Shown here in pieces: positions 60,426 to 60,956 of a stretch of 64,000 bases of DNA. Under the pieces are notes generated by a model. That model was not told the origin of the DNA. It was given only the letters and a program-made list of their open reading frames with translations, and did no database searches. The stretch is from Escherichia coli. GTDB lineage: Bacteria; Pseudomonadota; Gammaproteobacteria; Enterobacterales; Enterobacteriaceae. Position numbers and translations under genes: made by a program. Positions within the stretch are counted from its first letter, which is position 1. Each line of letters opens with the position of its first letter. The stretch lies in assembly GCF_003334355.1 (NCBI RefSeq), contig NZ_QOWP01000002.1; one strand, written 5' to 3'.

Positions 60426-60956
60426 TCACACCATTCCGGGCAAATACATTTGCACTTCATTTGCCGCTCTCTCACGTGCAACATGAAGCAATCTTTTTCG
60501 CCCACCAACGCCCCACTTAGCCATTTGGCTTGCGCACTGGCTTATCGCTTTGGTTTCAGTATTGATGATGTGATCGATTCTATTCAGACGGGACATTGCG
60601 CCAACGCCGAGACGGACAACCGTTTTGAAAACTTCATAAACTTCGACTTCAAATTCCGGCTTAATCCATGCTGCATATCTGATTGCCAGAAGTTCAACCC
60701 CCCACACACCTGGTTCTGCACCACCTTTGATTATTTTAAGTGGTTGAATTTGTTCCAAAGTGCTTTTTTGCACTTTGGCCTCCAGTGCTTTTATGAAGCG
60801 TTTTATCTGCGCGCTACGCAAAAACTGGCTTGGACGCTGTTGCTCTGTAGCCTCTTCATTTGCAACTGCTGCTGCATGGAGATCGTTTAAGTTGTAGCGT
60901 CCATCCTCATCAACACGAACGGACACACCATTGACAATAACTGTTGGGTACTTCAT
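60426..60956 (-). CDS. KilA-N domain protein
   Basis: 176-aa ORF; N-terminal KilA-N-like pattern (VIVNGVSVRVDEDGRYNLNDLHAA...WGVELLAIRYAAWIKPEFEV). Confidence 0.6.
   Translation of the reverse strand: MKYPTVIVNGVSVRVDEDGRYNLNDLHAAAVANEEATEQQRPSQFLRSAQIKRFIKALEAKVQKSTLEQIQPLKIIKGGAEPGVWGVELLAIRYAAWIKPEFEVEVYEVFKTVVRLGVGAMSRLNRIDHIINTETKAISQCASQMAKWGVGGRKRLLHVARERAANEVQMYLPGMV

Follow-up and report, generated by a model that had tools for sequence, protein, structure and literature searches.

Why does the late operon of an Escherichia coli prophage carry a small KilA-N gene, and what fills the long gap in front of it? The question is raised by a 64,000-nucleotide stretch of E. coli DNA (NCBI RefSeq assembly GCF_003334355.1, contig NZ_QOWP01000002.1; hereafter the window). 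The original prediction, made from the sequence alone, had singled out a KilA-N-like open reading frame (ORF) of 176 amino acids (aa), co-transcribed with the late genes and flanked by non-coding gaps. The ORF is present exactly as described, at 60426–60956 on the minus strand. The gene itself is an ordinary accessory gene that is already known and annotated, as orf45 of Salmonella phage ST104 and by the Prokaryotic Genome Annotation Pipeline (PGAP). What is new is the leader in front of it, which is widespread and unannotated and stands before many different cargo genes. Apart from a short ORF, the upstream "gap" consists of this conserved, structured leader and is no spacer.

The segment from about 60398 to 61128 on the minus strand is read here, with moderate confidence, as a portable late-operon cassette. 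It would consist of a terminator, a short GC hairpin, a rod-like hairpin that pairs with the Shine–Dalgarno (SD) sequence, and a cargo gene. Expression would be late and dependent on the antiterminator Q, translation would be throttled, and the encoded protein would be antirepressor-like. Table 1 lists the features of the cassette and its surroundings.

Table 1. Features of the KilA-N cassette and the neighbouring late operon (window coordinates; MFE, minimum free energy; CM, covariance model; CDS, coding sequence; AF2, AlphaFold model)
Feature	Coordinates	Strand	Basis or remark
Rho-independent terminator T (stem 61109–61128, U-tract 61098–61108)	61098–61128	-	Terminator scan; 5' limit of the conserved cassette
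Short GC hairpin H, CGCGC-UUCACAC-GCGCG, between terminator and rod	61073–61089	-	Folds; alignment
Rod-like RNA hairpin, ~93 nt	60965–61057	-	MFE and centroid folds, CM, alignments
25-codon upstream ORF inside the rod, AUGACCC...UAA	60970–61047	-	Read from sequence
CDS for KilA-N plus divergent ORF11CD3 protein, 176 aa, ATG start; homologue of ST104 orf45 and UPF_BP1 gp31	60426–60956	-	ORF list, Pfam, nucleotide identity
KilA-N DNA-binding domain, residues 9–113	60618–60932	-	Pfam, AF2, Foldseek
C-terminal alpha-helical hairpin, residues ~119–175, divergent ORF11CD3-like module	60432–60602	-	Invariant columns, AF2, profile links
Q-like antiterminator	63225–63848	-	
Holin, lambda-type	62226–62549	-	
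Lysozyme, GH24	61766–62242	-	
Rz/Rz1	61302–61769	-	
50-aa ORF, N-terminal hydrophobic helix; epsilon34 gp67 / Sf6 gp65-like	61162–61314	-	Annotated in relatives
Intergenic region downstream of the KilA-N gene; P22-like backbone, not cassette	60170–60425	-	97% identity to CUS-3 and epsilon34 over 60170–60397
DUF2560 gene, 80 aa	59927–60169	-	
TerS	59484–59924	-	
TerL	58072–59487	-	Portal gene beyond

The leader opens with terminator T, which had been flagged in the original prediction as a terminator-like hairpin and proves real. Its stem has eight pairs, six of them G–C, closes on a 4-nt loop and runs into TTTTTT on the minus strand, and its activity is predicted. The record of phage epsilon34 annotates a terminator at the same site, and the stem shows compensatory variants in other phages. 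The GC hairpin H that follows is conserved, with compensatory variants of the form GCGU...ACGC; three of its four pairs have changes on both sides. The rod comes next. In its predicted basal helix, ACCUUU (61052–61057) pairs with AAAGGU (60965–60970), and the latter is the SD of the KilA-N gene. Above the base stand helices S2 (AGGAUGA/UCAUC.CU), S3 (CCUUG/CAAGG) and S4 (AGGA/UCCU), topped by a variable apex. The 3' side of an asymmetric internal loop carries a conserved GUGYGA, which reads GUGUGA in the window. No promoter-like site was found on the minus strand between 60957 and 61128. Rfam searches at E ≤ 1 over 59000–64000 and at E ≤ 10 over 60900–61200 gave only sub-threshold matches on the terminator.

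The structure recurs in divergent relatives. Single-sequence MFE folds of 12 leader variants give one architecture, with which the window fold agrees. A covariance model, R1, was built from leaders of the window's own type, type A, only. It finds a single copy in the window, at 60954–61064 with 123.6 bits, and matches the divergent leader types over their full length at 30–51 bits. Types B and C come from Enterobacter, Dickeya, Plesiomonas, CUS-3, epsilon34 and P22, the P22 copy being a diverged variant that scores 45.8 bits. These types keep the architecture and change the sequences of the helices, which read AGAAAG/CUUUCU, GAGCCUG/CAGGCUC, AGAGA/UCUCU and CCUA/UAGG.

In a CM-based alignment of 46 sequences, 97.4% of cells are paired and both partners change in 16 of the 22 pairs. 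Covariation scores 0.448, slid controls stay at or below 0.089, and none of 500 shuffles reaches the observed value. Since this alignment is fitted to the R1 model, an independent count was made on a plain MAFFT alignment of 11 non-type-A leaders. Here 94.8% of cells are paired (at most 61.5% in slid controls), five pairs show double changes, and again 0 of 500 shuffles match. The SD is paired in the MFE fold of 89 of the 91 unique leaders, and a terminator-like hairpin lies no more than 160 nt upstream in 83 of them. When all types were put into one plain MAFFT alignment, RNAalifold picked up just the GC hairpin and a single helix, since the leader types are misaligned there. By this comparative evidence the leader is an SD-pairing RNA element supported by covariation, a putative new RNA family of a known functional kind.

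An outer helix GAACCU/AGGUUC, which leaves the SD free, was considered as the main structure and dropped, as in every type the MFE fold places ACCUUU opposite the SD. The extended form of this pairing, GAACCUU (within 61052–61064) with AAGGUUC (within 60975–60982), would free the SD. The purine/pyrimidine (R/Y) counts behind it are 83 A..U, 10 G..C, 10 G..U and 0 A..C among 103 unique leaders. The second copy of CCUU(G) pairs in the MFE folds of all types with CAAGG, and not in the outer helix. The alternative could be the second conformer of a switch, or only linkage between leader types.

The same comparisons bear on whether the leader acts as RNA at all. It could instead be a DNA "boundary sequence", a recombination joint or a hitch-hiker in which the hairpin is incidental. 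Type-A leaders are almost identical across different cargo genes, mosaic joints fall at the leader edges (60936, 61073 and 61127), and CUS-3 has annotated "boundary sequences" elsewhere in its late region, all in favour of such a role. It is nevertheless unlikely. The divergent types keep their helices through changes on both sides, including the swap of a whole helix (AGGAUGA/UCAUC.CU against AGAAAG/CUUUCU), and with every kind of cargo the SD forms part of the basal helix. In addition, a discrete RNA from this region builds up during P22 infection.

That RNA is P22F, and as P22F the rod exists in vivo. A survey of small RNAs in P22 infection (Noncoding RNA 2026, PMC13397905) reports P22F as an abundant 89-nt species with "no known function", whose 3' end lies 6 nt from the start of rha. 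The sequence printed there corresponds exactly to the rod of P22, at 39550–39638 of NC_002371 (locus L220), against a CM match at 39535–39641. P22F is thus the P22 orthologue of the rod hairpin in the window. The survey is silent on structure, conservation, SD pairing and any connection with other cargo genes (PMC13397905), and a search of the open-access literature for leader sequence strings returned this paper only.

The rod also bears on two gene starts. The GenBank start of P22 rha (orf201), at 39575, falls inside the leader hairpin, as does that of CUS-3 ECRS218_0024 (203 aa; L003 3040–3151). Because the annotated starts lie inside the hairpin, both ORFs are probably about 23 codons too long. 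The true starts are probably the ATG at 39645 in P22 and, in CUS-3, that of the 180-aa protein beginning MNYPTV, as in the PGAP entries for Rha. The leader thereby corrects two annotations, and it gives P22F a structural and genomic context.

P22F raises a second explanation, in which the rod serves first of all for processing or as a small RNA. RNase III or RNase E would cut it out of the late transcript, and it would act in trans or set the stability of the flanking mRNAs, with repression in cis secondary. Long irregular hairpins of this kind resemble the RNase III sites of T7 and lambda. P22F covers the rod, has defined ends and is abundant, and with up to eight copies per E. coli genome the leader could supply a pool of near-identical RNAs. 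The short RNA IsrK of prophage Gifsy-1 offers a precedent for action in trans (PMC4825925). Against this, no conserved single-stranded seed is evident beyond the 6–7-nt internal loop, no target is known, and the ends of P22F are staggered by about 14 nt where RNase III leaves a 2-nt overhang. Processing is also compatible with repression in cis rather than exclusive of it. As the main role it is judged rather unlikely, if somewhat less so than a DNA boundary.

Gifsy-1 provides the closest known parallel to a throttled leader. At its isrK–orf45–anrP locus, transcripts that run past a terminator carry, ahead of an antirepressor gene, a leader that is translationally inactive and that the short IsrK RNA activates (Hershko-Shalev et al. 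2016, PMC4825925). Both systems combine terminator read-through in a late region, a structured leader, an antirepressor-like gene and an upstream ORF (uORF) conserved in nucleotides rather than amino acids. The likeness is one of analogy and not homology: R1 finds nothing in Gifsy-1, and Rfam, which holds IsrK, gives no match to the window leader. AnrP was tested and is not related to the AntA-like cargo. Unlike in Gifsy-1, nothing is conserved upstream of the window-type terminator that could serve as a cognate activating small RNA, and the uORF is dispensable in types B and C.

The parallel suggests a further possibility, that ribosomes on the short uORF in the rod (AUG at 61047) activate translation of the cargo gene, as orf45 does for anrP. 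The type-A AUG stands at a fixed place, and in many copies the stop lies 13–15 nt before the main ATG or overlaps it. As in orf45 (PMC4825925), nucleotides are conserved and the peptide is not. Yet a helix encloses the AUG, and no usable SD precedes it. The uORF spans anything from 9 to 52 codons, has no constant frame or stop position and in some copies is continuous with the cargo ORF; 11 of the 91 leaders, of types B and C and with the same structure, lack an AUG at this place. The uORF is probably not a functional coding unit, and its role as an activator is about as improbable as that of a DNA boundary. A conserved leader peptide was rejected on the same variation.

The cargo is strikingly diverse. 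A degenerate DNA pattern for the leader retrieved at least 120 viral contigs, and 119 of the matches listed are genuine. A search for loci by protein alignment gave only near-identical loci, and it was the DNA-pattern scan that exposed the range of cargo. The ATG within about 30 nt 3' of the leader opens very different genes. Among the matches listed, these encode the 176-aa KilA-N protein, Rha proteins of 180–185 aa, KilA-N proteins of 251 and 173 aa, Rha-like proteins of 225 aa, the antirepressors Ant and AntA, two kinds of HNH endonuclease and a 491-aa glycosyltransferase; a GIY-YIG gene follows in epsilon34. The upstream neighbour lies on the same strand in 88 of the 91 loci with enough flanking sequence. 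The largest groups of neighbours are spanins (43 loci) and phrog_791, which is of unknown function and found among tail genes (25 loci). Others include a tail chaperone, a virion protein, an endolysin and another such cargo gene. One viral contig (L105) carries two cassettes, a leader with HNH before the holin (1292–1906) and a leader with a Rha-like gene after Rz (3793–4577), so the leader can occupy several late-operon junctions in one phage.

Of 5,426 complete E. coli genomes, 806 contain the 108-nt type-A leader, at 2,280 places in all and in up to eight copies per genome. No annotated feature lies under the match in any of the 30 E. coli records listed. O157:H7 genomes hold four to six copies; in strain EC4115 (L221 3001–3678) one follows the lysozyme gene and leads into an antirepressor gene, with Rz after it. 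The arrangement is the same in Shiga toxin (Stx)-type prophages and further lambdoid ones, where a "phage antirepressor N-terminal domain" gene follows the leader between lysozyme and Rz. With about 2,300 occurrences in complete E. coli genomes and its presence in P22, CUS-3, epsilon34 and Stx-type prophages, the leader is a good candidate for a new RNA family. It may explain restricted expression of antirepressors, and it bears on cross-induction of prophages in strains that carry several lambdoid prophages.

How the cassette would work can be outlined from lambda and P22 biology, in which Q-modified polymerase reads through terminators. This is the basis for proposing late expression. Having no promoter of its own and lying behind a terminator, the cassette would be transcribed only by Q-antiterminated polymerase, late in lytic growth, and unmodified polymerase reading through from upstream would be stopped at the terminator. 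With the ribosome-binding site (RBS) in the basal helix of the rod, translation would be low or gated by an opening event. Candidates for opening the hairpin are RNase III, RNase E, temperature, or a factor that binds the invariant GUGYGA loop. Alternatively, nothing opens it and the leader would be a simple damper. Between them, the two locks would leave the lysogen free of a potentially harmful DNA-binding protein and would limit how much of it is made from a very abundant late transcript. The rationale for a double lock is that Rha is reported to be harmful to lytic growth without integration host factor (IHF) and that P1 KilA is lethal when expressed. The leader thus offers a testable account of how potentially toxic DNA-binding proteins and nucleases are tolerated in highly transcribed late operons.

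A broader reading is put forward tentatively, with a chance somewhat short of even. The leader would be a new and widespread cis-regulatory RNA family that gates translation of interchangeable cargo, the antirepressor-like regulators KilA-N, Rha and Ant and the selfish nucleases HNH and GIY-YIG, in temperate phages of Enterobacterales, including the multiple copies in Stx/O157 prophages. GUGYGA would be where a specific factor of the host or the phage binds, or where cleavage occurs, to open the hairpin, and the released RNA (P22F) could act in trans.

The cargo slot of the window has close counterparts. The KilA-N gene and its flanks are 92–94% identical in nucleotides in the Salmonella phages UPF_BP1, ST104, SE1, PS119 and MG40. 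In ST104 (orf45), SE1, PS119 and UPF_BP1 (gp31) the likeness extends over 60218–61127 and comprises the 176-aa gene, the slot after Rz and the leader. Only the setting differs: the backbone around the window copy is of the E. coli CUS-3/HK620-like kind, and a 50-aa ORF that ST104 lacks stands in front of that copy. In E. coli chromosomes the gene is about 99% identical and carries the PGAP name "KilA-N domain-containing protein", and the whole 60170–61301 segment is present in 71 of the 5,426 complete genomes. A literature search for KilA-N in P22-like phages found nothing.

Other P22-like phages fill the same slot differently, with Rha in P22, CUS-3, HK620 and Sf101, a GIY-YIG nuclease in epsilon34 and g341c, and HNH in phiv205-1. 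Because the occupant varies in this way, the KilA-N gene is accessory and interchangeable rather than a packaging factor. The synteny thus bears out the accessory status originally proposed and goes against a conserved packaging accessory gene, the alternative named with it. By pairwise blastn, homology to CUS-3 runs as far as window position 60397 and resumes at 60936, and only 60398–60935 is replaced. The RBS and first six codons are common to the KilA-N gene (MKYPTV) and its Rha alternative (MNYPTV), and Pfam resolves the latter into Phage_pRha and ORF11CD3. P22 Rha (orf201) and the 180-aa Rha family thus resemble the window gene in slot, terminator–hairpin leader, RBS, first six codons and an ORF11CD3-type C terminus. 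They differ in the N-terminal DNA-binding family, Rha instead of KilA-N, and the gene bodies have no detectable nucleotide similarity. Judged from these sequences, the two occupants have their first residues and last domain in common and their DNA-binding domains different, a local example of domain shuffling. A passage that cites Henthorn and Friedman describes Rha as a product of the late operon that harms lytic growth when the host is IHF-deficient (PMC4936722).

The family extends beyond P22-like phages to unrelated ones. Its 170–181-aa proteins are conserved over their full length across Enterobacterales, and PF04383 is present in every homologue among the 120 matches listed. In a lambda-like prophage of Plesiomonas the gene lies between an M15 endolysin and a DUF2514 spanin, and in siphoviruses of Klebsiella, Enterobacter, Dickeya and Serratia it lies between tail genes and the tape-measure gene, co-oriented in both settings. 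A gap of about 185–215 bp precedes the ATG in each divergent locus, and these gaps align with the upstream gap of the window. Every one of them holds a terminator whose stem shows compensatory variants, a short GC hairpin and a conserved block reaching to the RBS. In two Serratia prophages (L017, ~7300–9500; L018, 5600–6500) an immI-like cluster stands near the KilA-N cassette in the tail-gene region. It contains Arc-family repressors, an antirepressor with Bro-N and P22_AR_C, an ORF6N protein and a HicA toxin. Such Serratia late-operon islands seem to collect antirepressor-type genes.

The encoded protein consists of an N-terminal KilA-N domain and a C-terminal helical hairpin. The KilA-N assignment of the original prediction held in a domain search: Pfam KilA-N (PF04383) matches residues 9–113 at E=2e-17, over model positions 6–104 of 107. 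PHROG 129, "transcriptional regulator", matches at E=1e-60, over only positions 1–173 of a 273-position profile. An AF2 model built with only 23 close homologues gave a predicted local distance difference test (pLDDT) score of 47, and an alignment of 95 sequences was used instead; the resulting model has a pLDDT of 87, and about 90 in the KilA-N core. This core has a beta-beta-alpha...beta-beta-alpha arrangement. It is followed by a 49-residue helix (residues 100–148), a tight turn at WGVGGRK and a second helix (residues 153–171). Foldseek against BFVD returns KilA-N proteins of phages and giant viruses and pox N1R/p28 (best E=7.6e-12). The best Protein Data Bank (PDB) structure match is weak (E=0.055), to the APSES DNA-binding domain of Mbp1, and fits the known relationship between KilA-N and APSES. 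A sequence search of the PDB gave no match. The protein is predicted from the modelled fold to bind DNA through KilA-N.

The last 60 residues are rich in invariant positions (RLN..DH.I..ET..IS.CAS.MA.WG.GGRK.LL..AR). BLASTP of the KilA-N protein against Rha aligns only the shared first residues, and the relation of the C termini emerged from profiles and an intermediate. The intermediate is a 165-aa KilA-N protein (L144) in which Pfam finds KilA-N and ORF11CD3, the latter at E=4e-13. It aligns end to end with the window protein (BLASTP E=1e-16), whose residues 129–175 fall on its ORF11CD3. In addition, phrog_10441 matches the C termini of both the KilA-N protein and Rha. By way of these intermediates the helical hairpin is assigned, on sequence, as a divergent ORF11CD3 domain. 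No C-terminal ANT/KilA-C domain (PF03374) was found, the Pfam scan giving KilA-N only, and neither NCBIfam nor PADLOC gave an informative match for the protein or its small neighbours.

P1 KilA has a KilA-N domain followed by KilA-C/ANT, and orf45 of ST104 is annotated in its record as "similar to P1 kilA". The two proteins share the KilA-N N terminus and a swappable C-terminal module; the window protein differs in having no ANT/KilA-C, in its length of 176 aa and in its ORF11CD3-like C terminus. Shuffled KilA-N/Bro-N/Rha/ANT regulators were reportedly described by Iyer, Koonin and Aravind in 2002. The window protein is most likely a DNA-binding regulator of the antirepressor/Rha class, and this is the weakest link of the explanation. 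It would be non-essential, antirepressor-like or transcription-regulator-like, would bind DNA via KilA-N and would pair or oligomerise through the helical hairpin it has in common with Rha. Behind the same leader it would be functionally interchangeable with Rha and Ant. By itself the gene adds little, being one more KilA-N accessory protein of predicted function.

Several points weigh against the cassette reading. The type-A helices are invariant. Because the stems never vary within type A, the covariation rests on a limited number of events between types, and it was counted on phylogenetically related sequences. For the leader as a whole the thermodynamic z-score reaches only -2.34, and the proposed repression of translation is read from a predicted structure. 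The 3' end of P22F falls between SD and AUG and could mark a product of RNA decay or processing, with ends unlike those of a simple RNase III product. The cargo is a further point: since HNH, GIY-YIG and glycosyltransferase genes occur among it, the leader is not specific to regulators, and the term "antirepressor-like" is guilt by association with other cargo genes. As for the C-terminal domain, Pfam gives no direct match to ORF11CD3 (PF10549) in the window protein, even at E ≤ 10. Alignment with the Rha family by hhalign places the C termini in register (E=0.0039) at a probability of only 8.7%, and the ORF11CD3 assignment is transitive for these two reasons.

A different role for the protein would be prophage defence or abortive infection from the lysogen, in the manner of BstA from the P22-like prophage BTP1. 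Accessory genes at module junctions are often defence genes. BstA reportedly has about 307 aa and adjoins the repressor. It carries a KilA-N-like N-terminal domain (PMC8585504). The resemblance is confined to that N terminus in a P22-like prophage; the C-terminal domain, size, genomic position and expression logic all differ. No PADLOC model matches the window protein at E ≤ 0.1. The absence of a promoter-like site, the terminator upstream in the late operon and the predicted sequestration of the SD argue that the gene is silent in the lysogen. Defence is accordingly the least probable of the explanations considered and very unlikely.

The surroundings of the cassette fit an accessory gene carried in a late operon. 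All neighbours from Q to the portal gene are co-oriented on the minus strand, and the region is the late operon of a P22-like (Lederbergvirus) prophage. Co-transcription of the KilA-N gene with the late genes is consistent with this orientation, with a leader that has no promoter-like site and with an upstream terminator for Q to read through. A classical moron has its own promoter upstream and a terminator downstream. Here no promoter-like site is found between 60957 and 61128 on the minus strand and the terminator stands upstream rather than downstream, so the cassette is accessory but not a classical moron. A composition check found no GC anomaly that would mark the cassette as foreign.

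The placement between Rz and the terminase small subunit needs adjustment. The gene does lie downstream of Rz, but the DUF2560 gene intervenes on the other side and TerS is not its immediate neighbour. The flanking gaps, originally put at 250–350 bp and taken as non-coding, measure 345 bp upstream and 256 bp downstream. The upstream gap is partly covered by the 50-aa ORF, and the conserved structured leader forms the rest. This ORF overlaps the end of Rz by 13 nt and is annotated by PGAP and in the epsilon34 record (gp67, similar to Sf6 gene 65). It is absent from UPF_BP1 as well as ST104.

The downstream gap is not featureless either. It is conserved among P22-like phages and corresponds to the region of the P22 small RNA P22G: 60170–60425 on the minus strand is homologous to the 3' two-thirds of this 204-nt RNA of unknown function. 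The region folds with a z-score of -3.22, one of 200 shuffles folding as well, and may form another structured leader, one that belongs to the DUF2560 gene.

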